A stretch of 64,000 bases of DNA from Candidatus Brocadiales bacterium (GCA_046758865.1 JBHIBD010000002.1:4128-68127); one strand, 5' to 3'; shown: positions 47,796-64,000, numbered from the stretch's first letter. Numbers and translations are program-made. The notes: a model not told the origin generated them from the sequence alone.

Positions 47796-47805
47796 GAACT
47801 TTGCT

Positions 47806-48426
47806 ATGAAATGGGTTCCATTAGGTCTTGTTAGATATACGTTCTGTCTGGGCGGGCTTAGTGTCTTCTTTTTCCTGATATGCATACTTACCGGGCCATT
47901 CCTGATGATGTATTACATACCCAGCGTTGACAGGGCGTGGGCAGACGTCCAGGACCTGAGCAACGTGGTGCCGTTTGGCAGGTTTGTCAGGAACATCCAC
48001 AGGTGGTCAGCATGTCTCATGGTTATATGTGTACCAGCCCACATGCTGAGGGTGTTTCTCCAGGCAGCTTACAAGCCACCGAGGCAGCTCAACTGGCTGG
48101 TGGGGGTTACGCTGCTTTTGCTGACATACTTAATGGCCTTTACGGGGTATCTCCTGCCCTGGGATAACGAGGCCTACTGGGCGGCCACTGTAGGTATGAC
48201 CATGGCAGAGAACAGTCCAATACTTGGGGCCAAGGGTCCATTTAGTGTGTTGGGCCCGGATACGGACATACATTATATGTTACTGGGGGGTACAGTCTTG
48301 GACCAGCCATCTCTTACACGGTTCTTCTTTGCCCACTGCGTGGCTATACCCGGGGCTATGGCTGGATTAATGGGACTCCATTTTTATAATATCCACAGGG
48401 CAGGTGGGATGTCCGGCCCTCTATAA
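47806..48426 (+). CDS. Cytochrome b6-like subunit (N-terminal cyt b, cluster 1)
   Basis: H-x13-H (helix B) and H-x14-H (helix D) heme ligands, FCLGG cysteine, PWD(N/Q) motif. Confidence 0.9.
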   Translation: MKWVPLGLVRYTFCLGGLSVFFFLICILTGPFLMMYYIPSVDRAWADVQDLSNVVPFGRFVRNIHRWSACLMVICVPAHMLRVFLQAAYKPPRQLNWLVGVTLLLLTYLMAFTGYLLPWDNEAYWAATVGMTMAENSPILGAKGPFSVLGPDTDIHYMLLGGTVLDQPSLTRFFFAHCVAIPGAMAGLMGLHFYNIHRAGGMSGPL

Positions 48427-48470
48427 TGATTGAGGTTATTGTTTGGTGAGTACACTGTGCGGAGGTCCTT

Positions 48471-48498
48471 GTAGTGGTCGAGCGAGCTCGACCACTAC
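48471..48498. repeat. REP-like hairpin GTAGTGGTCGAGCGAGCTCGACCACTAC inside cluster 1
   Basis: Lies in the 130-nt cyt b6/subunit IV spacer. The paralogous spacer in cluster 2 is 12 nt. Confidence 0.85.
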
Positions 48499-48556
48499 AA
48501 GACTAATCCGCCCAAGACGGACTATACAAATTAACTGGCTGGAGGTTTAAACGACA

Positions 48557-49336
48557 GTGGCTGGTGGACCGCATACTGGTAAAGAAAGATACAGGGTGAT
48601 GACGGTCGTCAAGGGTGAGGCCCTGAAGTCCAGGGATATATACGAGAGGCCGCCCAAGTATGAACTTTTCTTCCCGAATTTTGTTATGAAGGAGCTATGT
48701 GTCGGGCTGGCCTTCCTAATTATCCTCTTTGTTTGGGCCTACTTTAGGAATGCCCCCCTATATGAGCTGGCCGATCCAGGAGAGACCCCGGAGCACATAA
48801 AGGCCGCTTGGTACTTTGTTGGATTGCAAGAGATGCTGGCCTATTTTGACCCCTATTTGGCAGGGGTGATTATCCCAAGTGCTATATTGGCAGGACTTTA
48901 TCTTGCTCCCTTCCTTGATCCGGACCCCGTAAAGGGAATAGGCCGTTTCGCCTGGAAGGAGAGGAGGTTCGCCATGTGCACCTTCCTTGGGGGGTTTGTG
49001 TTTTGGTGGATGCTGATAATAGTAGGGTGGTATTTTAGAGGACCTTTGTGGGCCTTTTACTGGCCGTGGGAGGACCATTCTGTAGTCAAGGCCACAGAGG
49101 CTGTACAGTGGAACTTTCCTTTACCTGCGGGGATAGCCTACATAGTCGTCTTTTTTACCCTAGGAAACATTATACCTGCAATTATCTTTCCAAGGTTCTT
49201 TTACCGTCTGGGGATTGTTAGATACGTCATAACCATGTCCCTGTGGACGGGAATGATTTTTGTTGTGGCTAAGATGTTTCTGAGAAACGCCTTTGGCATT
49301 AAGTACATTTTAGTAACTCCATGGTTTAACGTGTGA
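48557..49336 (+). CDS. Cytochrome b C-terminal / subunit IV-like membrane subunit (cluster 1)
   Basis: KAAWYFVGLQEMLAYFDP (PEWY-like motif), multiple TM segments, GTG start. Confidence 0.82.
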   Translation: MAGGPHTGKERYRVMTVVKGEALKSRDIYERPPKYELFFPNFVMKELCVGLAFLIILFVWAYFRNAPLYELADPGETPEHIKAAWYFVGLQEMLAYFDPYLAGVIIPSAILAGLYLAPFLDPDPVKGIGRFAWKERRFAMCTFLGGFVFWWMLIIVGWYFRGPLWAFYWPWEDHSVVKATEAVQWNFPLPAGIAYIVVFFTLGNIIPAIIFPRFFYRLGIVRYVITMSLWTGMIFVVAKMFLRNAFGIKYILVTPWFNV

Positions 49337-49348
49337 GAGTGATGGGAT

Positions 49349-50692
49349 ATGATACCATTTCCAATTAATCTGTCCATTCCCTGGCTCATAGCGTTTCTGG
49401 TATTTGCGTGTGGCCTCGTAGCAACTTGTACTATATGGATATTTACCGAGTGGGGCGAGCCTGAGTGGAAGAAATATCAGCGGATAGAGCTAACGGAGAT
49501 GCGAGAAAACCTTGAAAAACAGTTACCCGTGCTGGAAGACCCCAAGTGGGGCGACCCCTCACAGGCCAAGATAGTAAGGGCCTCTATAGAGTTTCTCCGT
49601 AAACCGGACTACCAGATAAAGCAGATAATACTAAAGGGCCGAGGTAGCTGGAAGGAAGGCACAACCGGCATACCGGTGGACAGGTGCATGACCTGTCACA
49701 TAGACGAAGACAAGCTTACCAAGCAACACCCCTACACCAAAGACCACTTTGCCTATGACATCTATGGCTGCACGGTCTGCCACGAGGGCCAGGGCAGGGT
49801 GCTGACGAAGGAAGGTGCCCACGAGGGAATGTTGCGCAACAAGAGAGATATGATGCAGAGGATACAGAAGCCAGAGGAGATGGTGGCTTTATGGGAGAGG
49901 ATGGCCAAACTCTCTGTAGAGGAGGGAGATACGGCCTTTGATTTTAGGGATTATAGCGCTGCCGGAGAGAAGCTTGTGTACATGGGCAGCTTTGGCTGTC
50001 TTAAGTGCCATAGAAAACTTACCCCACGCCACGTTGAGGTGTGGGCGGATAACAAGTTCAAGACCTGGGAAAAGGTGCAAGCGGCAGAAGATTATGTTGA
50101 AGGTGACGAGAATTACCAGAAAAAGTGTTTGAAGTGCCACACCACGGGTTATGACGAAAAGACCGGTGAGTACGCCGAAGAGAACGTCACCTGTGAGGCC
50201 TGTCACGGACCGGGTGAGATGTATGTCAAGTTCATGAGCGAGGGAAAGCTGGCAGAGGCCGCTGTGGTGACCTACGAAGTGTTTAGTTTCAAGGTCTGCG
50301 GGAGATGTCATGTGTCGCGCAGACACGAGATGAGAGAGGCCATGCTGTTGGCTGTAGAGGAGGAGGAGGAGTTCTCAGAATGGCTGGCATCGTCCTTTGT
50401 TGAGGAATCAGATGCCCTTCACGCCAGCATTTCTGAAGAGACGGAGGCCTTCGGGTTAGAAGAACTGAAGGGATTGGAAGAGGTAGCTAACTCGTTGGAT
50501 ATGATGCTGGAGGATTTAAGGACATTGTTGCCTGAGCAAGAAGAAACTGTTCAAACTGCCGAGGAAGTGGAGCCTGACGGTGAAGGACCGCCACATCCAC
50601 TGAGGGCCAGACTAGAGGCCCCTGAGCCTTTCATGCAAGAGGCCCAGGCAGAGACGGCCAAAGAACCATTTAGTGGTAAGGGTGTGTATTAA
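49349..50692 (+). CDS. Membrane-anchored hexaheme cytochrome c with acidic C-terminal tail (cluster 1)
   Basis: N-terminal TM and six CXXCH motifs (CMTCH, CTVCH, CLKCH, CLKCH, CEACH, CGRCH). Confidence 0.88.
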   Translation: MIPFPINLSIPWLIAFLVFACGLVATCTIWIFTEWGEPEWKKYQRIELTEMRENLEKQLPVLEDPKWGDPSQAKIVRASIEFLRKPDYQIKQIILKGRGSWKEGTTGIPVDRCMTCHIDEDKLTKQHPYTKDHFAYDIYGCTVCHEGQGRVLTKEGAHEGMLRNKRDMMQRIQKPEEMVALWERMAKLSVEEGDTAFDFRDYSAAGEKLVYMGSFGCLKCHRKLTPRHVEVWADNKFKTWEKVQAAEDYVEGDENYQKKCLKCHTTGYDEKTGEYAEENVTCEACHGPGEMYVKFMSEGKLAEAAVVTYEVFSFKVCGRCHVSRRHEMREAMLLAVEEEEEFSEWLASSFVEESDALHASISEETEAFGLEELKGLEEVANSLDMMLEDLRTLLPEQEETVQTAEEVEPDGEGPPHPLRARLEAPEPFMQEAQAETAKEPFSGKGVY

Positions 50693-50697
50693 CCCGG

Positions 50698-50791
50698 GTA
50701 GGGGCACGGCATGCCGTGCCCCTTACTGGAGGTTGTCTGTAGCGTTGGAGCTTGCTCCAACGTTGAACGTGGCAGCAAGCTGCCACGCTAC
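50698..50791. repeat. REP-like hairpins inside cluster 1
   Basis: GTAGGGGCACGGCATGCCGTGCCCCTTAC (50698-50726) and GTAGCGTTGGAGC...GCTGCCACGCTAC (50739-50791). Confidence 0.85.
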
Positions 50792-50914
50792 ATTAAAAAT
50801 ATTTTTGCAATAAATGGATAACCGAGTGTAAAGAAAGGGGGTGGTGAAAAGGTATAAAAGAAGGCTAGTAGATCTCTCGTTACTAGAGGGAAATTTAAAA
50901 AAGGGGGATTAAGT

Positions 50915-52642
50915 ATGAAACAATGGAGCTTGCTTGCAGTGTTACTCTGTACGGGCTTGATTCTGGGAGTAGCGCCCAGTGCGGCGGTAGCCGAGGGGCC
51001 CTTCGCTGGTGATCCCAACGCCACCGTGGCAGCAGACCTTCCTCCTCTCAACCTGATGTACCCAGATAAGATGAAACCGGCCTGGGAGGAGTGGGTAGGT
51101 CTTGAGATGGGCGGTGGGCCTTTTAGGAAGCTTTATAGGCCCATACCCATGCACATGTACATTGCTCCCACAAAGCACTATATCAGGCCTGACATGTCTG
51201 GGTTTGCTGAGTTGTTCAAGAAGTTCCAGCCCGGCCAGTGCGAGGAGTGCCATATGGAGGTAACTCCCGGCTGGGTCCACCAGTGGGAAGATTCTGCCCA
51301 CGGCAACCCGAAGCACAAGGCAAAGTGGGCCGAGAAGACGAAGGCAATAGAAAAGAAGCTGGGCAGGACACTTGACAAGGTGGGCTGCGCTGAGTGTCAC
51401 GGCTCAAGCCACGACAGGCTTCAGATGCCCAACCTGGACAACTCCTGCGCACACTGCCATGAGCAGCAGGCCAAGGAGTTTGTCGCCGGGAAGAAGCAGG
51501 GCAGACCGAGCCACTTTCACAGTTGGATCTCAAATATTGTACCCCCCTGGTATATTGAGAACTACAGGAGGGGTGAAGGTGCAGGCATGATTGGCTGCGA
51601 CGTCTGTCACCCTGAGATGCAGCGCTGTGACGGCTGCCACATGAGGCATCTCTTCGGCACCAAGATGGCCAAGAAGCCCGGCACCTGCGGAAAGTGTCAC
51701 ATGGGTTATGACCACCCGGACTATGAGTCCTATACCAAGTCCGCTATGGGTGTTATCTATCAAGATACTGGCGCCGAATGGAACTGGGACTTGAACATGG
51801 AGGACATAGTCCCTGGTAAGGACTGGAGGGCGCCGACCTGTGCCTACTGCCATATGTATCAAGGCGGTGGGAAGTGGGGCCACACCGAGAACATCAATGG
51901 CATCTGGCGCATGGGTGTCTATAAGCCCAAGCAGAGGAACTATGAGTACAAGTCCAGCTTGAAGAATTCTCCCTACGGGATAAACATCCCGCCTCTTAAC
52001 AGGATTGTGGATGTTGACTCACCTGAGCTCAAGAAGAGAAGGGAGAACTGGATTGAACTCTGCTCCAACTGCCACAGCCCACGCTTCTCCAGGCTCTGGC
52101 TGGAGAACCTGGACGAGTTCATGCTGATAGGCTGGCAGCACACGGATGCAAGTATGGCCGTGTTGGACGACCTGTATAAGGCAGAGGCTATTATACCCAC
52201 GCCGGAGAATCGTGACCCATGGTTTCTTGGTGACGTGCTTGCCGACATACTGGGGCCGAAGAAGCTGGGTGAGACCCTTTACAACGCCTTCAAGACCACA
52301 CAGGGCCACTTCCCGATTTATGGGCCTATCCTTGCTACCGGCGACCAATATGTGACAGGTCCAGGCCGGCCGCACGAGATAGAGCTTTACCTTAATGAGC
52401 AGTGGTTCAGTCATCTGCTGAAGGCCTTCAAGGGTACTGCCCATGCCCAGCAGGATTACTCCTGGTGGTACGGTTGGTCGCCGATGTTGAAGGACCAGGC
52501 CAGGATACAGTCTAACGCCGTTAACCTCTACAGGCTGCTGGCTATAGAGAAGAAGCTAGGTATCAAGGCCAGTGGAGAACTGCCCAGCGACAAGAAGATT
52601 TACGGGCATACTCCTCTCTACACCAGCGGTAAGAGGAAGTAG
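50915..52642 (+). CDS. Octaheme hydroxylamine-oxidoreductase-like (HAO-family) cytochrome c (cluster 1)
   Basis: Signal peptide and eight CXXCH motifs (CEECH, CAECH, CAHCH, CDVCH, CDGCH, CGKCH, CAYCH, CSNCH). Confidence 0.88.
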   Translation: MKQWSLLAVLLCTGLILGVAPSAAVAEGPFAGDPNATVAADLPPLNLMYPDKMKPAWEEWVGLEMGGGPFRKLYRPIPMHMYIAPTKHYIRPDMSGFAELFKKFQPGQCEECHMEVTPGWVHQWEDSAHGNPKHKAKWAEKTKAIEKKLGRTLDKVGCAECHGSSHDRLQMPNLDNSCAHCHEQQAKEFVAGKKQGRPSHFHSWISNIVPPWYIENYRRGEGAGMIGCDVCHPEMQRCDGCHMRHLFGTKMAKKPGTCGKCHMGYDHPDYESYTKSAMGVIYQDTGAEWNWDLNMEDIVPGKDWRAPTCAYCHMYQGGGKWGHTENINGIWRMGVYKPKQRNYEYKSSLKNSPYGINIPPLNRIVDVDSPELKKRRENWIELCSNCHSPRFSRLWLENLDEFMLIGWQHTDASMAVLDDLYKAEAIIPTPENRDPWFLGDVLADILGPKKLGETLYNAFKTTQGHFPIYGPILATGDQYVTGPGRPHEIELYLNEQWFSHLLKAFKGTAHAQQDYSWWYGWSPMLKDQARIQSNAVNLYRLLAIEKKLGIKASGELPSDKKIYGHTPLYTSGKRK

Positions 52643-52656
52643 TGAGTGATTATTAT

Positions 52657-52699
52657 GGGGGAGCCGCCTGCTCAAGAGTAGGCGGCCCCTCCATTTTTT
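52657..52699 (+). terminator. Rho-independent terminator after HAO-like gene 1
   Basis: GGGGGAGCCGCCT / AGGCGGCCCCTCC stem (one mismatch), 10-nt loop, then ATTTTTT. Confidence 0.6.
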
Positions 52700-52800
52700 A
52701 GATTTGTGTTGTTGTGTCTTTCTACGGGTGTTTGTTTTTTTCTCCGGGGGTATAGGATCGAGGAGTTTAGGTGGCTTAATAGTTTTTGCAGGGGACTTTG

Positions 52801-53300
52801 ATAAGGGTTCCATTCTAAACTGCGTTAAAAGGAGGAGGACCGCCAATGCCACTTAGGGGCGAGACTGATGCTACTACTTCATTGGATGTGAAAAGTGCAA
52901 TAGACCTTCAGCCCACGGAGCTGAAGATTAACCCTGCTGGAAAGGTGACTCTCACCCTCCCCGGGATGAAGATAAGGCTGCCCGATGTTAAGGTGAAGCT
53001 CTGGTTTATGCCCCTTATCCGAGTGAGTGGCATGGAGGTGACTACGGAGCCTGCAAACCTCGAGGTGGATTTGTCGGATACGACAATGGAGGCCAGGGTA
53101 GAGCGTGCTACAAAGATAGAGATTCTTACTAATGGAGAGGTAAAGGCGCACGCCAAGCTGGAGGGTTCGGGTAGCCTCCAAGGCGGACCTATGAGCCTGG
53201 AGATTCCCGCAGATTAACTTCTTCCTGAGTCGAGAACAAGTCAGTAGATCACGGGTTTTATGTTGTGGCCTATGAACGTTTCTCTGTGCCTGTATCTAAA
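52801..53300 (+). repeat. 500-bp perfect direct repeat, copy 1 (copy 2 at 62362-62861)
   Basis: Line-by-line comparison at offset 9561 shows no mismatch. Identity drops sharply at both ends. Confidence 0.9.
52846..53217 (+). CDS. Orphan 123-aa acidic, beta-rich hypothetical protein (copy 1)
   Basis: Strong RBS AAAGGAGGAGG 8 nt before the ATG. No signal peptide, TM segment or Cys. Identical second copy and one degraded third copy. Confidence 0.6.
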   Translation: MPLRGETDATTSLDVKSAIDLQPTELKINPAGKVTLTLPGMKIRLPDVKVKLWFMPLIRVSGMEVTTEPANLEVDLSDTTMEARVERATKIEILTNGEVKAHAKLEGSGSLQGGPMSLEIPAD

Positions 53301-53516
53301 GAGAGTAATGGGTTTTAGTTGGGAAAGACTGCCATTCATGTGCCCTCATGTCTGACCTCCCAGCCCTTTCTGGGCCTGCTTGCCCTAAGTAGTTCTTAAG
53401 GAAAGAGGACCACTACCACAACCCTCTTTAAGGTTAAAGATCAACTCTCCACCCGCCTTGACTTTTTTAAAAAAAGTTCTTGCAAATACTATTTTGTGTG
53501 GTATAGTTTTCGACAT

Positions 53517-53675
53517 GATGTTGAGAATAGTATCATCTAAACTATACATGTCGAATAATACGGCATCTGTCGTAAGACTATACAGTTTTCTGGTATTCAG
53601 CTTATGGTGTTTAGGCAATATCTAGCGGCCTTCGTTGGCCCCCTCTATCCAATGCATTGCTTTGGCTATCGAGGG
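53517..53675 (+). pseudogene. Diverged copy of the comF upstream region plus its first ~22 codons
   Basis: Aligns without gaps to 1971-2129. About 80% identity by eye (59/72 over the coding part). Confidence 0.8.
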
Positions 53676-53689
53676 AAGGCACACGCAGG

Positions 53690-54199
53690 GGGCCTGCTAA
53701 TTCTGTAACAATAAACTTTAAGACTGTAGCAAAAACCTCACCTTAAAACGGCAGGAATAATGATGAGGGATAGTAGGCGAAGCATCCTTCAACAATCCAG
53801 CCTTGCCTCTGGTACGGCCGTTACCCTCGGTCTTTCAACGTCTACCCCCTCTTACGAGTTAACATACTCTGATTTGAACCCCCTCAAACAAAAATGGCAA
53901 GTGGTGATAGTCTCATTTTCTTATAGAGAGAAGATGTGTACAAAGGGCCTGCTAATTCTGTAACAATAAACTTTAAGACTGTAGCAAAAACCTCACCTTA
54001 AAACGGCAGGAATAATGATGAGGGATAGTAGGCGAAGCATCCTTCAACAATCCAGCCTTGCCTCTGGTACGGCCGTTACCCTCGGTCTTTCAACGTCTAC
54101 CCCCTCTTACGAGTTAACATACTCTGATTTGAACCTCCTCAAACAAAAATGGCAAGTGGTGATAGTCTCATTTTCTGATAAAGGGAAGATATGCGCAGA
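53690..54199 (+). repeat. Two tandem 255-bp units, each containing a Tat-signal-like 5' gene fragment
   Basis: Period 255 (53693 aligns to 53948). Produces the twin 67-aa ORFs 53760.. and 54015.. (MMRDSRRSILQQSSLASGTAV...). Confidence 0.88.
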
Positions 54200-54347
54200 G
54201 AGCCTGTCAATTCTATAGCAATAGACTTCAAAGAAGATGCATTCTCGATATCTCTAGAAGAGCTCTCCCTAATAAGGGCCAAGCATCTGGAGGCCGCACG
54301 GCGATCTGCGCTGAGTGATATACCTATAGCCACCTCTGTGAATAAGG
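54145..54347 (+). pseudogene. 5' fragment copy B of the cluster-2 oxidoreductase gene (leader plus ~52 codons)
   Basis: Aligns to 54782-54984 at offset 637. ORF 54191 encodes MRREPVNSIAIDFKEDAFSISLEELSLIRAKHLEAARRSA.. Confidence 0.8.
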
Positions 54348-54348
54348 G

Positions 54349-54544
54349 ACTTTGTAAGAGTCCCATTCTATCTAACTGTGTAAAGGAGGGGACCGACAAT
54401 GCCACTTAGGGGCGAGACGGACGCTACTGTTTCATTTTCTAAGGAGATGAAGGTAAAGGCCAAGGATAAAGAGGTCAATGGTAAGGGCATCATAGAGCTG
54501 TTAACACTTGGCGCTGAGCAGGGTACTGATATACGCATCATTGC
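54349..54544 (+). pseudogene. Chimeric fragment: RBS plus first ~12 codons of the 123-aa ORF joined to a 99-bp internal piece of the HPr gene
   Basis: 54349-54435 resembles 52796-52883. 54446-54544 aligns to 3951-4049 (KVKAKDKEVNGK..IELLTLGAE.GTDIRI). Confidence 0.8.
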
Positions 54545-54584
54545 TAGACGAAAATGTCTTAATTGTAAACGGTGTAAACAATGT

Positions 54585-54768
54585 GAGAGGGAAAATATGC
54601 ACAGAGAACCTGCCAATTCTATAACAATAAACTTCAAGGAAGGTGCATTCTCGATATCTCTGGAAGAGCTCTCCCTGATGAGGGCCAAGTAACCACAGAG
54701 GCCGCACGGCAGCCTCCAGGGCGGACCTATGAGCCCAGAGATTCCTGTGAATTAGCTTCTTTCAGAGG
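54585..54768 (+). pseudogene. 5' fragment copy C of the cluster-2 oxidoreductase gene joined to the 3' end of the 123-aa ORF
   Basis: 54597 ATG...MHREPANSITINFKEGAFSISLEELSLMRAK. 54711-54768 resembles 53173-53230 (SLQGGPMS.EIP). Confidence 0.75.
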
Positions 54769-54827
54769 AGTGGATAGTCTTAAAAATGGTAAGTGGTGAT
54801 AGTCTCATTTTCTTATAAAGGGAAGAT

Positions 54828-56795
54828 ATGCGCAGAGAGCCTGTCAGTTCTATAACAATAAACTTCAAGGAAGAAGCATTCTCAATATCTCTAGAAGAGC
54901 TCTCCCTGATGAGGGCCAAGCATCTGGAGGCCGCGCGGCAATCTGCGCGGAGCGATATACCTATAGCCACCTCTGTGGATAAGGAATGGTTTAGTGAAAA
55001 TGTACCCTGTCGCCGCACCTGTCCGGCTCGCACCAATGCCAGGGGCTATGTAATGGCCATTGCTGAAGGCAGGTACCAGGAGGCCTATCTGATTGCCAGG
55101 AGGAATAACCCCTTTGTTTCCGTCTGCGGCAAGGTCTGTGGTGCGCCCTGTGAGTCGGCCTGCCGGAGGGGCAAGGTGGATGAGGCGGTATCTATAAGGG
55201 CCTTGAAGGATTTTGCCGTAGAAAGCAACCGCCTGAGTACTGAAGAGGTTTATCGCTGGCTGGGGCAGAAGATGGAGAGGGTGGTGCCGGTGGTGAGGGG
55301 GAGGAAGTCTCCCCGTCTCGTTTCAGTTTGTAGTGAGCGCACTCTTTCAAGCCAACCCGTTTGCTCCCCGGCCCGGGTGGCAATAGTTGGTGCGGGGCCC
55401 GCCGGTCTTTCGGCCGCCCATGACCTGACCCTCATGGGCTATCAGGTAAAGCTCTATGAGGCCAGCAGTAACCCTGGTGGTATGCCTGCCAATGCACTGC
55501 CCTTCTTCAGGCTGGATAGAGAGGCGGTGAGGAAGGATGTGGAATCCATACTCTCTCTGGGCATAGAGCTGGAAGTTAATAAGGTCTGCGGAAAGGACTT
55601 CAGCATTGACCAGCTCTGGGAGGAGTTTGATGCAGTCCTTATAGCAGTGGGGCTCCAGAAGGGGAGGGTTATCCCCATCCCAGGGGTGGAGTTGTCGGGG
55701 GTCTTATCGGGGTTGGACCTCTTGATGGACGTAGCGGCTGGCCGAAAGGTTACTTTGAGTCAGAAGGTAATGGTAGTGGGAGGGGGATGCGTGGCTACGG
55801 ATGTAGCCAGGGCAGCGGTGAGATTGGACTCCACCAGGGAGGTGCACCTGGTATGCCTAGAGGCCATGAAGGGCTGTAGACCCGATGATCCCAGGGAGGA
55901 GATGCCTGCCTGGGTCGGTGACGTTGTAGATAGTAAGGAGGAAGGAATCATCTTTGATACCTCCTGTAGCCCCAAGAGGGTGGTGGGTCAGAATGGCAGG
56001 GTCAAAGGTCTAGAGGTGATAAGGGTAAGCTCTGTTTACGACTCTGAGGGTCGTTTCAAACCCACCTATATCCCAGGTACAGAACGTATCATAGAATGCG
56101 AGAACATCCTCTGGGCCGTGGGTCAGGCCCCTGATATGAGTTTCCTGGAAGGTAGTCAGGGTTTTGAGCTTAACCAGAGGAAGATGCTAAAGGTAGACCC
56201 CGTTACCCAGGCCACTTCCAAGCCTGGAGTCTTTGCCTGTGGTGACATCCTGGGTCCTGGCCTGGTAATAGACGCAGTAGCCTCGGGTCAACGGGCTGCC
56301 CAGGCCATCCATCAGTACCTGGGAGGTAGCGGCTTCCTGGGGTTGAGCAGACAGGTGCGCATGGAGGCTATACCCGTTCCCCGTAGGTTTGAGAGGTTCT
56401 TCCCCGGAATCTCCTTGAAAAGGCTACTTCCTGCCCTGCTGCCTCCCAAGGAGAGGCTCAAGGGATGGGAGGCCGCAGAGATACCTTACTCGGAATACGA
56501 TGCCCGGGAACAGGGCCGGCGGTGCCTCAACTGCAATGTCAGCCCGATAATAGGGCGGGAGAGGCCGTGTATCCTCTGTGGGGGTTGTGTAGACGTCTGC
56601 CCCACCAGGGCTATCTCTATGGTCTATCTGGATGATTCAGTGGTGAAAGAGTCAGCCCTCTTGGATGGCGGGGCAGGTGGTGGGCCCTGGGTAGGGCTGA
56701 CAAAAGATGAGGAGCTTTGCATCCACTGCGGGCTGTGTGACTATCGCTGTCCTGTTGATGCCATTTCAATGGTGAAGTTTGAGGAAATCTTGTAG
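54828..56795 (+). CDS. GltD-like FAD/NAD(P)-binding oxidoreductase with FeS domains (cluster 2)
   Basis: Paralogue of 45390-47288. VAIVGAGPAGLSAAHDL, CILCGGCVDVCP, CIHCGLCDYRCP. Confidence 0.85.
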   Translation: MRREPVSSITINFKEEAFSISLEELSLMRAKHLEAARQSARSDIPIATSVDKEWFSENVPCRRTCPARTNARGYVMAIAEGRYQEAYLIARRNNPFVSVCGKVCGAPCESACRRGKVDEAVSIRALKDFAVESNRLSTEEVYRWLGQKMERVVPVVRGRKSPRLVSVCSERTLSSQPVCSPARVAIVGAGPAGLSAAHDLTLMGYQVKLYEASSNPGGMPANALPFFRLDREAVRKDVESILSLGIELEVNKVCGKDFSIDQLWEEFDAVLIAVGLQKGRVIPIPGVELSGVLSGLDLLMDVAAGRKVTLSQKVMVVGGGCVATDVARAAVRLDSTREVHLVCLEAMKGCRPDDPREEMPAWVGDVVDSKEEGIIFDTSCSPKRVVGQNGRVKGLEVIRVSSVYDSEGRFKPTYIPGTERIIECENILWAVGQAPDMSFLEGSQGFELNQRKMLKVDPVTQATSKPGVFACGDILGPGLVIDAVASGQRAAQAIHQYLGGSGFLGLSRQVRMEAIPVPRRFERFFPGISLKRLLPALLPPKERLKGWEAAEIPYSEYDAREQGRRCLNCNVSPIIGRERPCILCGGCVDVCPTRAISMVYLDDSVVKESALLDGGAGGGPWVGLTKDEELCIHCGLCDYRCPVDAISMVKFEEIL

Positions 56796-56809
56796 AGAGG
56801 TCGTATGCG

Positions 56810-57328
56810 ATGTTTAAGTCTAAGTCTATGACTCATAGAGAGGGAGCTATACCCCTGGGGCTCAAGAGGCCCTCCAGACGGCAGGCCCTGTGGACTGCGC
56901 TCTGGTGGAGTGGCTGGGGGGTAATCTTTGGCATGCTCTGTGTTGCAGGGGCAACCCTGGTGCGGTTCCTCTACCCCAGGGCCACTTATGAGCCCTCTAA
57001 GGTCTTTAAGGCCAAGAGGCCTGAGCAGTACGCAATGGGCTCGGTAAACCTGGTGCCCGGCCGAAAGGTCTGGATAATACGGGAAGAGAGGGGCTTTTAT
57101 GCCCTCCTGGCCATATGTACCCATCTGGGTTGCCAGCCGGTGTGGTATGAAAGCCAGCAGATATTTAAATGCCCCTGCCACGGCAGCCGCTTTTATAAGG
57201 ATGGGATAAACTTCGCTGGCCCGGCCCCCAGGCCCCTGGAGCGCATGGAGATTACCTTGGCTAGCGATGGGCGGCTGGTGGTGAATGAGGGCAAGGCAGT
57301 GGATATAGACTACTTCCTGAATGTCTAG
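56810..57328 (+). CDS. Rieske [2Fe-2S] subunit (cluster 2)
   Basis: CTHLGC and CPCHGS boxes, SRRQAL Tat-like motif. Confidence 0.9.
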   Translation: MFKSKSMTHREGAIPLGLKRPSRRQALWTALWWSGWGVIFGMLCVAGATLVRFLYPRATYEPSKVFKAKRPEQYAMGSVNLVPGRKVWIIREERGFYALLAICTHLGCQPVWYESQQIFKCPCHGSRFYKDGINFAGPAPRPLERMEITLASDGRLVVNEGKAVDIDYFLNV

Positions 57329-57351
57329 CTATTCCTTTTAGGAGGAGAGCG

Positions 57352-58086
57352 ATGAATATATTCGTCCAGATATGGAGGTCTATATTCAGGACTGGTGTCT
57401 CTGACAGCCCCCTCCACCGGGTCTTCCGGGTGGTGGCAAATTTTATCCTCCATATCCATCCGTCCCGGGTGAGCAAGGAAGGCATAAAGTTTAATTACAC
57501 CTTCTGCCTGGGTGGGCTCAGCCTCTTCTTTTTTGTAGTCACTGCCATAACCGGTGGGTTTCTGATGATTTATTATGTACCCGATGTGGATAAGGCCTAT
57601 TCCAGCATGAAGGACCTGGACGATGTAGTACCTTTCGGCACATTTCAGAGAAACCTCCACCGCTGGGCAGCCCACCTGATGGTCGTCTTTGTGCCCCTGC
57701 ACATGCTAAGGGTATTTTTGACCAGCTCTTATAAACCACCCAGAGAGTTTAACTGGGTCATCGGGGTGGGCCTGCTTATGATAACCTTCTTGCTCAGTTT
57801 TACGGGCTATCTACTGCCATGGGACCAGTTGTCTTTTTGGGCAGTAACGGTAGGAGCTACCATGGGGGAAAATACCCCTCTTCTGGGCGCTAAAGGCCCT
57901 TTTAGCCTCTTGGGTCCGGAAGAGGATGTCCATTTTATCCTTTTGGGTGGCACCGCCATAGACCAGCCTACCCTCATCCGCTTTTATTTTGCCCACTGTG
58001 TGGGCCTGCCAGGGGCCGCAGCGGGATTAATGGCCATCCACTTCTGGAGGATTAGAAAGGCAGGAGGCATCTCTAGGCCCTTGTAG
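57352..58086 (+). CDS. Cytochrome b6-like subunit (cluster 2)
   Basis: H-x13-H, H-x14-H, FCLGG. 38 aa longer at the N-terminus than copy 1. Confidence 0.9.
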   Translation: MNIFVQIWRSIFRTGVSDSPLHRVFRVVANFILHIHPSRVSKEGIKFNYTFCLGGLSLFFFVVTAITGGFLMIYYVPDVDKAYSSMKDLDDVVPFGTFQRNLHRWAAHLMVVFVPLHMLRVFLTSSYKPPREFNWVIGVGLLMITFLLSFTGYLLPWDQLSFWAVTVGATMGENTPLLGAKGPFSLLGPEEDVHFILLGGTAIDQPTLIRFYFAHCVGLPGAAAGLMAIHFWRIRKAGGISRPL

Positions 58087-58098
58087 TGTCTTAGACCA

Positions 58099-58875
58099 AT
58101 GGCTGAGAAAACAGAAAGCAAAGAAAAGGTTAGACTCCTTACCGTGGTGAGAGAGGACGTCCTGCTCAGGCAGCGGGATGTCTATCCTAAGGAAGTGAAG
58201 GTAGACACCTGGCCCCACTTGGTGAAGAGGGAACTCATAGCCCTGCTGGCGGCCTCCGTAGTGCTGATGGTCTGGAGCCTGGTACAGGATGCCCCCCTGG
58301 AGGAGCTGGCCAATCCTAGTGAGACCCCCAAGGAGGCCAAGGCCCCCTGGTATTTCGTGGGCCTGCAGGAACTGCTGGTATATTTTGACCCCTGGATAGC
58401 AGGGGTGGTGCTGCCTACGGTCATCCTTATTGGCCTGGCCATTATACCCTATATAGACCCTGACCCTGTAAAGGGGGTGGGCCGCTACACCCTTGGGAAG
58501 AGAAAGTTTGCCGTGTCCTGCTTCATTGGTGGCTTTGCTATGTGGTTTGTCTTGGTGGTAGTGGGACAGTATTTTCGGGGTCCCTTCTGGAGCTTTTACT
58601 GGCCCTGGGAGGGCCGGGAGGTGGTGAAGCCCATGGAGGCGGCCCTGGTCAGTTTCCCCCTGCCAGTAGGCATAGCCTTTCTGGTATGTTATGGGGCCCT
58701 GGTGCTCATCCTCCCTGCTATCTTCTTCAAGAATTTCTTCTTCAGGCTGGGCCTTATACGATATTTCATTACCATGAATCTATTTGCTGGCCTGCTCTTT
58801 GTGCCTATCAAGATATTCCTGAGGCACATCTTGCATGTCAAATACATACTGGTAACCCCCTGGTTTAACGTGTGA
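58099..58875 (+). CDS. Cytochrome b C-terminal / subunit IV-like subunit (cluster 2)
   Basis: KAPWYFVGLQELLVYFDP. Paralogue of 48557-49336. Confidence 0.82.
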   Translation: MAEKTESKEKVRLLTVVREDVLLRQRDVYPKEVKVDTWPHLVKRELIALLAASVVLMVWSLVQDAPLEELANPSETPKEAKAPWYFVGLQELLVYFDPWIAGVVLPTVILIGLAIIPYIDPDPVKGVGRYTLGKRKFAVSCFIGGFAMWFVLVVVGQYFRGPFWSFYWPWEGREVVKPMEAALVSFPLPVGIAFLVCYGALVLILPAIFFKNFFFRLGLIRYFITMNLFAGLLFVPIKIFLRHILHVKYILVTPWFNV

Positions 58876-58887
58876 AGGTAAAGCGAT

Positions 58888-60216
58888 ATGGCATGGAGGA
58901 TACCCTTTGTTGTCTTATCGGTAGCCCTGCTGGGCCTGCTCATCATCTGGATTATCAGGGAGATTAACCCCCAGTGGAAGGGCCATCAGGAGGCCGCTTA
59001 TGCCCAACAGGTGGAGAGACTGGAGCAGGAGTTGGAGAGGTGGTCCGACCCTAAATGGGGGGACCCTGTCACGGCAGAAAAGGTGAGACAGAGGATTGAG
59101 GCCCTAAAAAGACCCCACCTGGGAGTAAAACAGATACTCCTTAAAGGCACCGGGCTCTGGAAGGAGGGGGAAAACGGGGAGAAGGTGGACAGGTGTATGA
59201 CCTGCCATATAGATGAAGACAAATTGGTAGAACTGCACCCCAAAACATTTGATTATTTCCCTTATGACATCTATGGCTGTACGGTCTGCCACGGAGGTCA
59301 TGGCGAATCCCTCCGGCTGGAGAAGGCCCATAAGGGCATGCATACCGACAGGAAAGAGATGATAGGTACGATAGACACCGCTGACGCCGTGCTGGAACTG
59401 TGGAAGGAACTGGCCAAACTCTCCCCGAAGGAGGACCAAAGGGCCTCAGATTATAAGTATTACAGCATAACCGGCGAGAAGGCGGTCTACGTGGGCAGCA
59501 TCACCTGCCTCAGGTGTCACAAGGGCCTCACCACCTGGCACATTAACCGCTGGAAGGACAACAAGTTTGTCACAATGGAACGGGTCAAAAAGGCCAGAGA
59601 TTTTATAGAGGGTGATGAAGACTACAGGAAGAAGTGTTACAAGTGCCATACCACCGGGTACGATGAAGAGAGCGGCAAATATGTAGAGGAAGGTGTGACC
59701 TGTGAGGCCTGCCACGGACCCGGCCAGCTTTACGTTTATTTTATGAGTATGGGAAAGGTAGAAGAGGCCCAGAGGCTCAGCAAGCTGGGCTTTAGCTACG
59801 AGGTCTGTGGCAGATGCCATATGGCCAGGCACCACGAGATGAGGGCTCAATTCCTGGCCAAGATTCAATCCGAAGGCCCGAAGTCCCAGGTTCTGGCGCA
59901 GGAAGTAGAAAAGAAAGAGGCCCTTCAGAAAGAAACCTCTCAGGAAGAGGTGATACCTGTTTCCTTACAGGTGCCCGTATTTGAGGTGTCTCCAGAGATA
60001 TCCCCCTTCTCGGAAGACAACACCATCAGGGAAATTAAACTGGTAATCCCTGAAGTAGGGGCTGCCCCTCCGGCCCAGAAGGCTGAGGAGCAAGAAGCCG
60101 TGTCTTTGGATATAGATAATAGAAGTACCCACAGTGGAAAGGAGGGATTACCCCTTAAAACCCAGACTGAAGCCTTACAAGAAGCAGCGACCACACCTCG
60201 AGGCGAAGACCCATAG
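58888..60216 (+). CDS. Membrane-anchored hexaheme cytochrome c (cluster 2)
   Basis: Six CXXCH motifs (CMTCH, CTVCH, CLRCH, CYKCH, CEACH, CGRCH). Confidence 0.88.
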   Translation: MAWRIPFVVLSVALLGLLIIWIIREINPQWKGHQEAAYAQQVERLEQELERWSDPKWGDPVTAEKVRQRIEALKRPHLGVKQILLKGTGLWKEGENGEKVDRCMTCHIDEDKLVELHPKTFDYFPYDIYGCTVCHGGHGESLRLEKAHKGMHTDRKEMIGTIDTADAVLELWKELAKLSPKEDQRASDYKYYSITGEKAVYVGSITCLRCHKGLTTWHINRWKDNKFVTMERVKKARDFIEGDEDYRKKCYKCHTTGYDEESGKYVEEGVTCEACHGPGQLYVYFMSMGKVEEAQRLSKLGFSYEVCGRCHMARHHEMRAQFLAKIQSEGPKSQVLAQEVEKKEALQKETSQEEVIPVSLQVPVFEVSPEISPFSEDNTIREIKLVIPEVGAAPPAQKAEEQEAVSLDIDNRSTHSGKEGLPLKTQTEALQEAATTPRGEDP

Positions 60217-60269
60217 TCCCCAGGGAGGTTAAGTGGGAGTAGAAAAAACCTTATAAGGAGGGAAGCGTT

Positions 60270-61877
60270 ATGAGATTACTGTTCATCATAGGGTTGGCCA
60301 CAGCAGTTATTTTGCTAGGGCCGAGTCAAGTCCAGGCCCAACAGGCCCCTGAGGGGAAGTCTTATACCTATCCCTCAGAGTCTCTTAAGAAGATGTACGA
60401 AGAGCACGTGGGGCTGGATAAGGGAGATGGCCCCTTTGCTGAGGCCTATAAGCCCATACCTCTCTACATGTATATGAGTCCTGCCAGGCACTACATACGG
60501 CCAGACATCAAGATGTTTGCTGAGCTGCTGGAAAAATTTCAGCCCGAGCAGTGTATAGAATGCCACACCGAGGTCACCCCGGGGATAGTCAAGGCTTGGC
60601 AGAGCTCCACCCATGCCCAGCCCAAGAAAAATGGGTATTTCGCCGCAAAGACCGCTGAGATAGAGAAGCGCCTGGGACGGGAGATAAAAGAGGTATACTG
60701 TGGGGATTGCCACGGCAAGAACCATGATGTGCTGCAGATGCCCACCGTGGATAATTCCTGCGGAGAGTGCCATGTGCAGCAGGCAGAGGAGTTTGCCTCT
60801 GAGAGGGAGTATGGTCGGCCCAACCACATCCAGAGTTGGGAGTCCAACGTGGTGGTGCCCTGGTATATAGAGATATACCGCCAGGGGGAGGGCGCCTCCC
60901 TGATAGGCTGTGACCTGTGCCATGTGGAGATGGCCAGATGCGACGGATGCCACACCAGGCATAGCTTCTCAGCCGCTGAGGGCAGGAGGCCCCAGGCATG
61001 CGGTAGTTGCCACATGGGACCAGACCACCCCGATAGGGAGACCTACAGCTATTCTAAGATGGGCACTATTTACGACCTGGAGGGTGAACACTGGCCCTGG
61101 GACAAGCCCTTGAAGGATGTCGTTCCTGGAGAGGACTATAAGAGCCCCACCTGTCAGTATTGCCATATGTATAAGGGGGGTGGGGAATGGTGGATTAACC
61201 CCGTCAGCAAGGGCATCTGGCGCATGGGCACCGTACCTCCGAAGGAGGTAGAGTATCAGTCCAGCCTCAAGGATTATCCCTACGGAATTACTATCCCTCC
61301 TTTGAATAAGAAGCTGGAGATATATTCCCCACAGAATCTCCAGAAACGAGAGCAGTGGATAGAACTGTGTGGCAGGTGCCACAGCAGCCGCTTTGCCCGA
61401 CTGTGGCTGGAAAACCTTGACCAGTATATGTTCCTGTCCTTCAAGAAGCAAGACCAGGCCCAGAAGATACTTGATGAGGTCATTGCCGAGGGGCTGCTTG
61501 ACCCAGCTCCTGGAGACAGGGCCATCTTCCCTATGGGGGATGTACTGGCCGAGGCCCTGGGTCCAGATAATTTAGGGATGGGTATCTACAAGGCCTTTAA
61601 GGAGAGTAAGGGGCATATCCCTGTAGTAGGCCCCATCCTGGGGGTCTACTCTGCTTTCATCACGGGACCCGGCAATCCCAGTACTATAGAGAGGGAGTAC
61701 TCGGAGATGTGGTTCTGGTACAAGCTCAAGGGCTACAAGGGCACAGCCCATGCCCAGCAGGACTACTCCTGGTGGTATGGTTGGTCACACATGATTGGTT
61801 CACTAGCCCACATCCAGGATGAGGCCGACAAGCTCAGGAGGCTCAAGGCCCTGGAGGTGACAACCAAGCTTAAGTAA
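60270..61877 (+). CDS. Octaheme HAO-like cytochrome c (cluster 2)
   Basis: Signal peptide and eight CXXCH motifs (CIECH, CGDCH, CGECH, CDLCH, CDGCH, CGSCH, CQYCH, CGRCH). Confidence 0.88.
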   Translation: MRLLFIIGLATAVILLGPSQVQAQQAPEGKSYTYPSESLKKMYEEHVGLDKGDGPFAEAYKPIPLYMYMSPARHYIRPDIKMFAELLEKFQPEQCIECHTEVTPGIVKAWQSSTHAQPKKNGYFAAKTAEIEKRLGREIKEVYCGDCHGKNHDVLQMPTVDNSCGECHVQQAEEFASEREYGRPNHIQSWESNVVVPWYIEIYRQGEGASLIGCDLCHVEMARCDGCHTRHSFSAAEGRRPQACGSCHMGPDHPDRETYSYSKMGTIYDLEGEHWPWDKPLKDVVPGEDYKSPTCQYCHMYKGGGEWWINPVSKGIWRMGTVPPKEVEYQSSLKDYPYGITIPPLNKKLEIYSPQNLQKREQWIELCGRCHSSRFARLWLENLDQYMFLSFKKQDQAQKILDEVIAEGLLDPAPGDRAIFPMGDVLAEALGPDNLGMGIYKAFKESKGHIPVVGPILGVYSAFITGPGNPSTIEREYSEMWFWYKLKGYKGTAHAQQDYSWWYGWSHMIGSLAHIQDEADKLRRLKALEVTTKLK

Positions 61878-62129
61878 GTCACCCCACTGGTGACTGAGGA
61901 GAGGGCCCCCCCTGCCCCAGGCATGCCAACCTGGGTCAGACAGAGCCCACCTCTGTAAGTCCACCCTCCGTGTGGGTAAGGGCTCTCTCCTTTTCTATCA
62001 TAAATATGCGTGCCCATTTCGCATGTGTCGGGTTTTTCGGAGGGTTCGTATGGTTTAAGGCCCATTTCTACGGGTGTTTGTTTTCTCTCCGGGGTGCAGG
62101 TTCGGGGGGTTTAGGTAACTTAATAGTTT

Positions 62130-62340
62130 TTGTATTGAGAGCTGTGAAAAAGTTTATAGTACCGTTTTAAATCTTCCCCCTCCCTTGAGGGGAGGGGGAC
62201 AGGGGGAGGGTGATGCCAGAACATTCTAAATATTCCTGGTGTAAGTGAATATGTCAAGGTTAACAACCACCCCCACCCTTACCCTCCCCCCTCAAGGGGG
62301 AGGGAGAACTGGGTTTGAACCCCTGGAAAAGACACTTTTG
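62130..62340. mobile_element. ~200-bp MITE-like insertion with CCCCCTCCCTTGAGGGGAGGGGG / CCCTCCCCCCTCAAGGGGGAGGG hairpin ends
   Basis: Absent from the homologous position in copy 1 (52785-52795). Flanked by TTTTG on both sides. Confidence 0.6.
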
Positions 62341-62361
62341 CAGAGGTCTCATTGGACTTTT

Positions 62362-62861
62362 ATAAGGGTTCCATTCTAAACTGCGTTAAAAGGAGGAGGA
62401 CCGCCAATGCCACTTAGGGGCGAGACTGATGCTACTACTTCATTGGATGTGAAAAGTGCAATAGACCTTCAGCCCACGGAGCTGAAGATTAACCCTGCTG
62501 GAAAGGTGACTCTCACCCTCCCCGGGATGAAGATAAGGCTGCCCGATGTTAAGGTGAAGCTCTGGTTTATGCCCCTTATCCGAGTGAGTGGCATGGAGGT
62601 GACTACGGAGCCTGCAAACCTCGAGGTGGATTTGTCGGATACGACAATGGAGGCCAGGGTAGAGCGTGCTACAAAGATAGAGATTCTTACTAATGGAGAG
62701 GTAAAGGCGCACGCCAAGCTGGAGGGTTCGGGTAGCCTCCAAGGCGGACCTATGAGCCTGGAGATTCCCGCAGATTAACTTCTTCCTGAGTCGAGAACAA
62801 GTCAGTAGATCACGGGTTTTATGTTGTGGCCTATGAACGTTTCTCTGTGCCTGTATCTAAA
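62362..62861 (+). repeat. 500-bp perfect direct repeat, copy 2
   Basis: Identical to 52801-53300. Confidence 0.9.
62407..62778 (+). CDS. Orphan 123-aa hypothetical protein (copy 2, identical)
   Basis: Same sequence as 52846-53217. Confidence 0.6.
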   Translation: MPLRGETDATTSLDVKSAIDLQPTELKINPAGKVTLTLPGMKIRLPDVKVKLWFMPLIRVSGMEVTTEPANLEVDLSDTTMEARVERATKIEILTNGEVKAHAKLEGSGSLQGGPMSLEIPAD

Positions 62862-62963
62862 AAGGGTAATAGTTTTTAGTTGGGAAAGACTGCTATTTAT
62901 GAAAAAGTTTTGGGTAAAAGGGCGTTTATTTACAACTGTGTCTCAATAAGGGGGTATTCTATA

Positions 62964-63608
62964 ATGCGCAATGAGTTTTGTGTTGTTCTATGTTCGATAG
63001 TACTTTACTTCGGTCTGACAATACCGTTAGACGTCAGCGCAGGTGGAGAAGACACAGAGCCTTGGAATGAGCCTAGTGGAGAGATAGAGAGGATCTATAA
63101 ACGTTTTGCCGAGATAAGTGCTACGATGCTTGTCTCCGTCCGTAATGTCATTGCAAAGTACCAGGGACTCATAAACCAGGACCCCGAGACAGGGAACTAC
63201 CATTTCAAGGGTTTTGTGCCAGCGATTGTTGGGAGCTATGTTGCCAACGATTTCAACCTCAGGACAGGATACAAGTTGAGGCAGACGGCCCTAAAGGTTA
63301 GAAACCCCAAAAATAAGCCAGACGAGTGGGAAGTAAAGGCGCTCGGCATACTTGAAAAGGATAAAACGAAAAAGGACTTTGGGGAAATAACCAAGGTAGA
63401 GAAGAAGGATGTTTATCGCTACATGAAGCCTCTGTATATGGAGAAGGAATGTGTATTGTGCCATTCCGTTCCTGAGGTCATGCCCCCGGAGATCAGGGCA
63501 TACATCGAGAAGTATTATGCCGCTGATGAGGCACTGGGGTACAAGGAAGGTGACCTGCGTGGGGGTATAAGTATTACAGTCCCAATAACAGAGTGGTTTA
63601 TTCCTTGA
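62964..63608 (+). CDS. DUF3365-domain single-heme c protein (Tll0287-like sensor fold)
   Basis: Signal peptide, RNPKNKPDEWE, one CVLCH motif, GDLRGGISITVP. ATG 62964 is preferred over the ORF start at 62880. Confidence 0.75.
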   Translation: MRNEFCVVLCSIVLYFGLTIPLDVSAGGEDTEPWNEPSGEIERIYKRFAEISATMLVSVRNVIAKYQGLINQDPETGNYHFKGFVPAIVGSYVANDFNLRTGYKLRQTALKVRNPKNKPDEWEVKALGILEKDKTKKDFGEITKVEKKDVYRYMKPLYMEKECVLCHSVPEVMPPEIRAYIEKYYAADEALGYKEGDLRGGISITVPITEWFIP

Positions 63609-64000
63609 AGTTCATACACGTTTTGGTATAAACCAGCTGTGCTGGTTCATGTTGATTGCGCTGGTGCCATTGACGATTGCAGGTACGGTCTGCTACTTCT
63701 TAGTTTTCATGTTTTATCACACTACGACTTTGGGGGCTTGTAGTTGCTCGATTTTCGGCGTAGGCGGTTCTGCCTCTGGCACGACCTTCGGCGCCTCAGG
63801 CCGCCAGAGGCGGCCCTGTGGGCTACTTCAAGGCCCACCACAGGCGGGATAATATTTGGGCATTTTGCAGTGGTCTCATAGAACCTGTCCCCTTCCATTA
63901 TTACCCTTCATTGCCCTTCCGGGATAAAATCTAGGCAAAAAAGGTTTCTCAACACTCTCCTTTTAGGGTAAAATGCCTCATTCACGCTGTGGAGAATAGA

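Follow-up and report, generated by a model that had tools for sequence, protein, structure and literature searches.

The stretch of DNA considered here (the window) comprises 64,000 nucleotides from a Candidatus Brocadiales bacterium (GCA_046758865.1 JBHIBD010000002.1:4128-68127), and it carries two paralogous operons, cluster 1 and cluster 2, each of them followed by a small cassette with an orphan gene of 123 amino acids (aa). Over 500 bp, the two cassettes are identical. According to Pfam, the same six genes occur in both clusters: they encode an NAD(P) oxidoreductase-like iron-sulfur (FeS) flavoprotein, a Rieske protein, the N-terminal part of cytochrome b (b6-like, four-helix), its C-terminal part (subunit IV-like), a hexahaem cytochrome, and an octahaem cytochrome resembling hydroxylamine oxidoreductase (HAO). 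These are also the parts of Kuste4569-4574, the Rieske/cytochrome b complex of Kuenenia stuttgartiensis whose subunit make-up has been described (PMC12954380). The difference is that two such operons are found here, each with a trailing 123-aa orphan gene, and for anammox bioenergetics this means that operons of the Kuste4569-4574 type can stand in tandem.

The clusters themselves share ~65% DNA identity and 48-64% protein identity. In a neighbour-joining (NJ) tree of the octahaem protein, drawn without bootstrap, the cluster-1 and cluster-2 types of many genomes form two deep clades with ~50% aa identity. As for the cassette, it consists of an upstream element, a ribosome-binding site, the 123-aa orphan gene, and a short 3' region. 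The features on which the argument depends are given below in the order in which they lie along the window; sister loci are numbered with L, and the two used most are L004 (GCA_046759685.1) and L018 (GCA_044240385.1).

45375-52642, plus strand: cluster 1, a Rieske/cytochrome b operon, from Pfam, the orthologs in L004 and L006-L009, and the octahaem tree.
52655-52700, plus strand: intrinsic terminator that separates the cassette from the octahaem gene of cluster 1; its hairpin has -31.2 kcal/mol and z -5.2, and U6 comes after it.
52719-52800, plus strand: upstream element of the cassette, copy 1; an older homology (~84% to copy 2) outside the perfect tract, also present in L004 next to cluster 1 and in L018 next to cluster 2.
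52801-53300, plus strand: perfect repeat copy 1, with a 45-nt 5' leader that includes the ribosome-binding site, then the 123-aa gene and a 3' stretch of 83 nt.
52846-53217, plus strand: first copy of the small conserved gene (orphan, 123 aa), following cluster 1; from homologs and the codon-position pattern.
53301-53340, plus strand: right flank of copy 1, ~85% identical to 62862-62901 and L004-like; L018 is unalignable here, and the homology stops at 53340.
54828-61877, plus strand: cluster 2, the paralogous operon, with the gene order of cluster 1; from Pfam, the Logan contig L001, and the orthologs in L010, L012, L014, L018, and L023.
62065-62132, plus strand: upstream element of the copy-2 cassette, directly adjoining cluster 2 as it does in L018, and 85.7% identical to 52719-52788.
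62133-62353, no strand assigned: 221-bp insertion resembling a miniature inverted-repeat transposable element (MITE), between the upstream element and copy 2; it ends 8 nt before the perfect tract.
62362-62861, plus strand: perfect repeat copy 2, identical to copy 1; second NCBI accession, on one contig.
62407-62778, plus strand: second copy of the small conserved gene (orphan, 123 aa), following cluster 2 and identical to the first; the matching position is occupied in the cluster-2 ortholog locus L018.
62862-62901, plus strand: right flank of copy 2, from BLAST and the alignment to the copy-1 flank.
62964-63608, plus strand: Tll0287-like gene (Pfam), following copy 2; the equivalent place in L018 is occupied by a member of this family.

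A strong ribosome-binding site, AAGGAGGAGG, lies in the 45-nt leader of each repeat copy. Simple scans for promoters and terminators near the repeats gave nothing above background.

By direct comparison, 52801-53300 and 62362-62861 agree at 500 of 500 bases (offset 9561). The copies have the same orientation, are 9,061 bp apart, and bracket cluster 2. A mismatch stands immediately outside both ends, G at 52800 versus T at 62361 on the left and G at 53301 versus A at 62862 on the right. A preliminary description, made from the window alone, had reported this perfect match, and the comparison bears it out; its direct, sharp-edged repeats around cluster 2 are found again by BLAST as well, and the flank coordinates it gave are right to within about 10 nt, with a flank identity of ~85%. 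The BLAST alignment of 52793-53340 with 62354-62901 reaches 98.7% over 548 nt, of which the 40-nt right flank has ~85% identity, and 52719-52788 matches 62065-62132 at 85.7%. Beyond 53340 and 62901 the homology is gone, and elsewhere the longest exact match between the clusters is 20 nt. The edges are therefore abrupt, in that identity falls from 500/500 to ~85% in 52719-52800 and 53301-53340 while the homology goes on. At 85% identity, 500 straight matches would arise by chance with a probability of about 5e-36.

The nature of the identical positions is also informative. The tract includes 128 non-coding positions and 123 third-codon positions, and every one of them is the same in both copies. 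Zero differences in 500 nt place the divergence at or below about 0.6% (95% upper bound), versus 16% to the closest sister; on this estimate, the split from that sister would be 25 times or more as old as the event that made the copies identical.

How do the cassettes look in related genomes? The small gene follows the octahaem gene in loci of the cluster-1 type (L004, L006, L007, L008, L009, L011, L013, L019, and L022) and in loci of the cluster-2 type (L010, L012, L014, L018, and L023). The most telling is L018, where a single contig holds, in this order, a homolog of the region upstream of cluster 2 (53397-54347), cluster 2 itself (85.6% DNA identity), the upstream element with the small gene in an uninterrupted run, and two Tll0287-like genes. 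Its positions 6859-9009 align without a break to 60007-62131, and 9016-9449 align to 62354-62784. This contiguity means that cluster 2 natively owns a cassette, and that the order cluster 2, cassette, Tll0287 is syntenic elsewhere. In L004, the upstream element, the small gene, and the 3' flank are all found with cluster 1. Over the repeat, L004 and L018 are 72.9% identical to each other, and the window is 83.6% identical to L004, 78.3% to L018, and 100% to its own paralog, so that the paralogs are closer than the orthologs. Given these divergences and that of the flanks, without homogenisation the cassettes of the window should differ by roughly 15-27%.

The small gene has diverged from its orthologs in the ordinary way. 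Compared with L004, 48 of 369 coding nucleotides differ, identity is 94% at codon positions 1 and 2 and 73% at position 3, and the codon differences comprise 28 synonymous and 13 non-synonymous ones. Third-position identity is 73% to L004, 67% to L006, 62% to L007, and 52% to L009. Together with the homologs, this pattern indicates that the reading frame is a real gene under purifying selection.

All of these observations converge on one explanation, which we consider probable: the 500-bp repeat is the tract of a recent gene conversion within the chromosome, i.e., a non-reciprocal homologous recombination between two cassettes that already existed. What favours it is the perfect identity of coding, synonymous, and non-coding positions, the sharp edges, the older homology outside them, the native cassettes at both sites, and the normally diverging orthologs. 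Such tracts are a known bacterial phenomenon; this one is a clean case of textbook quality, with one end tied to a heterology.

The sequence of events would be as follows. Each of the anciently diverged operons natively ends with its own cassette. The block with cluster 2 would have come to lie so that its cassette was 9.5 kb downstream of that of cluster 1, making the two cassettes close direct repeats. One of them would then have served as template and overwritten the other. To the left, the heteroduplex would have been blocked at the 221-bp insertion of copy 2, and to the right the tract would have ended ~40 nt short of the end of the homology. We infer the recombination mechanism, the precedence of the insertion over the last conversion, and the recurrence of conversion.

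The insertion at the left edge deserves attention. It is absent from copy 1, from L004, and from L018. Its terminal inverted repeats are imperfect and 17 nt long, and it contains two hairpins rich in G and C (GGGGAGGG/CCCTCCCC) as well as an inverted repeat at 62175-62212 and 62268-62305; its predicted fold has -44.2 kcal/mol (z -4.0). Partial matches to it occur in L011 and L012. It shows no clear target duplication, and no second copy lies within the 64-kb window. A large heterology is expected to halt the extension of a heteroduplex, and the tract starts 8 nt from the insertion; for these reasons, the insertion was most likely already in place at the last conversion and fixed where it ended on the left.

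The layout of the locus may itself have favoured conversion. The last nucleotides of the window belong to a stretch that has counterparts in sister loci:

63910-64000, plus strand: intergenic sequence, 80-82% identical to L004 4031-4122, L006 6516-6582, and L007 10455-10522; in cluster-1-only sister loci it lies ~400 bp past the small gene.

In L007, L019, and L004, which have cluster 1 only (and in part in L006), the order is the small gene, ~400 bp, and then this sequence. The window thus looks like a cluster-1 locus into which a block with the mosaic region upstream of cluster 2, cluster 2, its cassette, and the Tll0287-like gene has been inserted past the cluster-1 cassette. Such an insertion leaves the two cassettes only 9.5 kb apart, and this proximity favours conversion. 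Within the intergenic sequence, 63914-63981 is a conserved stretch (~70-90 nt, 80-82%) that in L007 precedes a Na+/H+ exchanger gene. This stretch, which is cut short by the end of the window, matches nothing in Rfam and may act as a leader or in regulation. Another rearrangement at this spot is seen in L006 (1081-6022), where two tandem octahaem genes of the cluster-1 type, 84% identical over the C-terminal ~233 aligned residues, flank the small gene.

Which cassette was the donor? At the sites where L004 and L018 differ, the repeat agrees with L004 at 74 and with L018 at 48, and either direction of transfer is compatible with these figures. The pattern is mixed, with a leader that is L018-like and a 3' end that is L004-like, which hints that the repeat may be a mosaic from several events. 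In the small-gene tree (NJ, ~120 residues, no bootstrap), the cluster-1 and cluster-2 contexts are mixed, unlike in the octahaem tree; the incongruence suggests that the operons may have exchanged their cassettes more than once.

Several points weigh against gene conversion as told above. Recombination between sequences that differ by ~15% is normally inefficient, so that, starting from such a divergence, the model has to assume that conversion was frequent in the past or that the event was a rare one. The case for recurrent concerted evolution depends on the tree incongruence of one protein of 120 residues, and neither the scans of genome and metagenome collections nor 12 contig look-ups gave a second genome with both cassettes on resolved contigs, or any tandem arrangement. 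The other points concern the data. The contig comes from a short-read metagenome-assembled genome (MAG). Short-read assemblers pop the bubbles caused by single-nucleotide polymorphisms (SNPs), and the "100%" may really mean "at least about 98%", a correction that leaves the step from ~85% unaffected. The order of the flanks (path A-R-B...C-R-D, where R is the repeat) rests on synteny rather than on reads, and the support from independent read sets covers the branch at the left edge only. Finally, the exact 123-aa protein is absent from the Logan gene calls, though the organism is present in the runs concerned; the repeat could be fragmented in the graphs, or contigs of 500 bp could have been left out of the index.

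These last points lead to the question of whether both copies exist in the DNA at all. In an assembly artefact, similar copies would have been collapsed on one graph edge, or the repeat would have been wrongly resolved so that the clusters are not adjacent; in the latter version, the true path would be cluster 1, repeat, Tll0287, accompanied by a 9,561-bp circle or a separate cluster-2 locus. We regard this as unlikely, yet it has its arguments. Besides the MAG origin of the contig and the absence from the Logan gene calls, a sister MAG has SPAdes-style NODE contig names and low coverage, a perfect repeat of 500 nt exceeds the typical read length, and in the cluster-1-only loci L007, L019, and L004 the small gene stands directly before the sequence resembling 63910-64000. 

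Several results speak against it. Two Logan contigs, L002 and L003 (runs SRR29324601 and SRR29324603), are 100% identical to the window, and both end at 52830. A de Bruijn contig ends k-1 bases inside a repeat. With the Logan k, which we take to be 31, 52830 equals 52800 + (k-1), so that in the raw data of either run the shared sequence starts at 52801, and the initial 31 nt or more of the repeat occur there with two different neighbours on the left. At NCBI, the identical 123-aa protein (locus tag ACE5IC_00840, "Candidatus Brocadiales bacterium") has two accessions nine apart, MFQ5861637.1 and MFQ5861646.1, both on one contig of 70,007 bp. The round start at 52801 and the length of exactly 500 nt could have been taken for an artefact of the window; the two accessions and the Logan breaks at 52830 reject this. 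Moreover, the order found on one contig in L018 supports the C-R-D junction and, by elimination, A-R-B. Lastly, the collapse of a bubble erases a few SNPs and cannot make the step from ~85% to at least about 98%, so that the core finding survives in either version. For the right edge, confirmation was sought in Logan with the Tll0287-like gene (two start codons tried) and the small protein, and there was no record of them. For users of MAGs, the lesson is that perfect repeats in short-read bins call for confirmation at the read level.

A third Logan contig, L001, reproduces 54894-62297 exactly (100%). Its end at 62297 lies inside the MITE-like insertion, suggesting that the genome has other copies of this element; for its other end, at 54894, no exact repeat of at least 31 nt within the window can account.

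A second possibility is that the repeats were made de novo by the arrival of cluster 2, either through a Campbell-type integration of a circle via the shared 500 bp or through a duplication that copied the cassette, with no later conversion. The inserted appearance of the cluster-2 block, between the cluster-1 cassette and the Na+/H+ exchanger region when compared with cluster-1-only loci, agrees with such an arrival, as does a transposase-like helix-turn-helix (HTH) gene upstream of cluster 2 in L018. We nevertheless consider it very improbable. The homology of ~85% beyond the tract on both sides makes the duplicated sequences older than their identity, and the upstream element of copy 2 is native to cluster 2, as L018 indicates. 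Furthermore, a single crossover in the cassette would put the Tll0287-like gene after copy 1, which is not observed. Nor does the repeat resemble a composite transposon or another mobile element: it has no transposase, no terminal inverted repeats at its ends, and no target-site duplication, its flanks being homologous to one another rather than target duplications.

A different matter is what the repeats may do once they exist. The preliminary description had proposed that they are a ready-made copy-number switch, and to weigh this idea it is necessary to consider the region that precedes cluster 2.

53341-54827, plus strand: mosaic region in front of cluster 2; part of it is conserved at the corresponding place in L018.
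53480-53507: candidate sigma-70-like promoter, TTGCAA-16-TGnTATAGT, inside a stretch 82% identical to L018 (186-297).
53690-54199: 255-bp tandem duplication (97% identity), with an open reading frame (ORF) of 67 aa per unit that has a twin-arginine-like N-terminus (MMRDSRRSILQQSSLASGTAV...).
54145-54347, plus strand: 203-bp direct repeat, 93% identical to 54782-54984, holding the upstream region and the first 52 codons of the cluster-2 oxidoreductase gene; single copy in L018.
54346-54767, plus strand: degraded third cassette, with ends 82-89% identical to the repeat and an interior made of an HPr-like fragment and an oxidoreductase 5'-end fragment.

This region is a patchwork of pieces with different origins. 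The stretch 53517-53676 is an 80% copy of 1971-2130, where the double-zinc-ribbon gene at 2058 has its promoter region and its first ~24 codons, and the promoter-like site lies just upstream of this copy; cluster 2 may be driven by a captured promoter. The ORFs of the 255-bp duplication may be a fragment of a gene for a protein exported by twin-arginine translocation (Tat). The 5' end of the cluster-2 NAD(P) oxidoreductase gene occurs in several copies, and the degraded cassette is flanked by the 203-bp repeats (54145-54347 and 54782-54984). In its interior, 54445-54550 is 89% identical to 3950-4054, the HPr domain of a gene for a fusion of phosphotransferase system (PTS) enzyme I with HPr (3859-5868). 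A chimeric ORF of 97 aa (54399-54692) joins the ribosome-binding site and first 11 codons of the small gene, the HPr fragment, and the oxidoreductase 5' fragment, and is probably a pseudogene patchwork.

Along 54145-54984, the order is an oxidoreductase 5' fragment, a cassette remnant, and the complete operon. A tandem duplication of the cluster-2 unit and a subsequent internal deletion would leave just this order, which may be a faint, indirect trace of a past change in copy number. If the direct repeats were a selected switch, the 9.56-kb unit would be excised or amplified and the dose of the complex would vary in the population. The geometry is right, as the repeats are perfect, direct, and 9,061 bp apart, and the scar with flanking repeats that are single copy in L018 is what such cycles would leave behind. 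On the other hand, any pair of direct repeats has this property, and the scar is old (83-93% identity) with a scrambled interior, which fits sporadic illegitimate recombination equally well. A selected switch is therefore very doubtful in our view: it is a structural possibility only, without indication of regulation or selection.

Perfect direct repeats of 500 bp that are 9.1 kb apart are expected to recombine at some low rate in a RecA-dependent manner, and the products would be a deletion (cluster 1, cassette, Tll0287), a circle of 9,561 bp, or a duplication. As a by-product of the proposed conversion, cluster 2 now lies between perfect direct repeats and could be deleted or duplicated by recombination of the RecA type. 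Such an arrangement offers an easy mechanism by which one complex could be lost or amplified.

Beside recent gene conversion, the preliminary description had named a very strong constraint on the sequence. Extreme purifying selection of this kind at the DNA or RNA level, for instance on a regulatory site or a structured RNA inside the repeat, is scarcely credible: the protein is well conserved within a narrow family (79% mean column identity), and in the leader and the 3' region, too, the copies do not differ, but the third positions have decayed in the orthologs (52-73% identity), the repeat is only 78-84% identical to L018 and L004, where the 128 non-coding positions have diverged as well, no Rfam family was found in the repeat or its flanks, and the folding of the 3' region is ordinary (z +1.15). 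The comparison with orthologs refutes constraint; of the two readings in that description, the evidence favours recent conversion.

It is useful to set the gene-conversion reading beside known systems. The tufA/tufB genes of Salmonella and E. coli and the rRNA operons undergo concerted evolution by gene conversion. The window shares with them paralogs that are closer than orthologs, identity at synonymous and non-coding positions, sharp edges, and a phylogeny of the tract in conflict with that of the flanking genes. It differs in that the converted unit is the small trailing cassette of operons ~50% identical in protein, not the main duplicated genes, and in that the direct repeats are only 9.5 kb apart, with an edge of the tract adjoining a MITE-like insertion. 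In ammonia-oxidising bacteria, the amo and hao operons occur in multiple near-identical copies. The likeness is that respiratory genes of the nitrogen cycle are present in several copies, with an identity within the genome far above that between species; there, whole operons are near-identical, whereas here the paralogs are old and diverged and just 500 bp are homogenised. A third comparison is with rrn operons and insertion sequence (IS) copies, between which, as direct repeats, RecA-dependent deletion, duplication, and amplification take place. Here, too, a segment lies between long perfect direct repeats and is open to unequal crossing-over; the difference is that the repeats are a functional gene cassette and neither IS nor rrn sequences. 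Prokaryotic cases of gene conversion and concerted evolution have been surveyed (PMC6053082), and conversion in repeats that short reads hide has been treated as well (PMC12046097).

The orphan gene raises questions of its own. In deep-branching Brocadiales, it consistently trails operons of the Kuste4569-4574 type. Its homologs are 45-89% identical and are found only in Brocadiales MAGs; the family forms 39 clusters at 90% identity, whose names are only Brocadiales, Hypogeohydataceae, or Tripitaka MAGs, and an exhaustive hidden Markov model (HMM) search of 1.84 billion proteins gave just 9 representative clusters. Database searches recovered no homolog bearing the name of Kuenenia, Brocadia, or Scalindua, and the protein has no match in Pfam, NCBIfam, or PDB. 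The AlphaFold2 model has a predicted local distance difference test (pLDDT) score of 33.5 and is unusable. A conserved gene restricted to one lineage in this position is a candidate for an extra subunit or an assembly factor. One can go further and imagine that the HAO-containing Rieske/cytochrome b complexes of deep-branching Brocadiales have this protein in common, as a component or assembly factor not recognised before, and that it is kept interchangeable between operons through recurrent conversion, with repeats that make cluster 2 excisable or amplifiable so that its copy number varies in nature, and with the upstream scar as a trace of such cycles; this larger picture is speculative, and we would call it rather improbable.

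In a more distant group of Brocadiales, two diverged small genes (~45% and ~58% identical to the protein of the window) stand in tandem behind the operon, at the following places.

L011 1681-2612: two tandem small genes.
L013 9527-10360: two tandem small genes.
L016 193-1055: two tandem small genes.
L021 737-1665: two tandem small genes.
L022 1471-2434: two tandem small genes.

Since the two genes fall in separate clades, the small-gene family has at least three subtypes. The profile of the small protein also matches, in five separate stretches each, two very large proteins of the representative library, P0045 (1905 aa) and P0046 (1456 aa), which hints that the 123-aa protein may be related to a repeat module of giant proteins.

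Within the clusters, a block of 63 nt near the 3' end of the octahaem gene (52417-52479 and 61724-61786), which encodes KGTAHAQQDYSWWYGW, is 89% identical between the two paralogs. Across cluster types and genomes its DNA identity is 89-93% (L007 8745-8801, L008 9541-9610, L009 8953-9013, and L013 9155-9215). As a second conversion patch it was considered and rejected, because it consists mostly of codons of low degeneracy and is kept in every ortholog of both types, which points to constraint on the protein.

Two other repeats lie far from the clusters. The small ORF at 24900-25238 has a hydrophobic N-terminus like that of a signal peptide and imperfect tandem repeats that encode AAPAVEEV-like units; it contains exact repeats of 43-48 nt. 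The stretch 24790-24871 is identical to 1743-1824, a perfect direct repeat of 82 nt with many short hairpins (ggccagatagtgcctatctatctggcc) in two intergenic regions 23 kb apart, which may be an element like the repetitive extragenic palindromic (REP) sequences or MITEs, or else a shared regulatory or terminator module.

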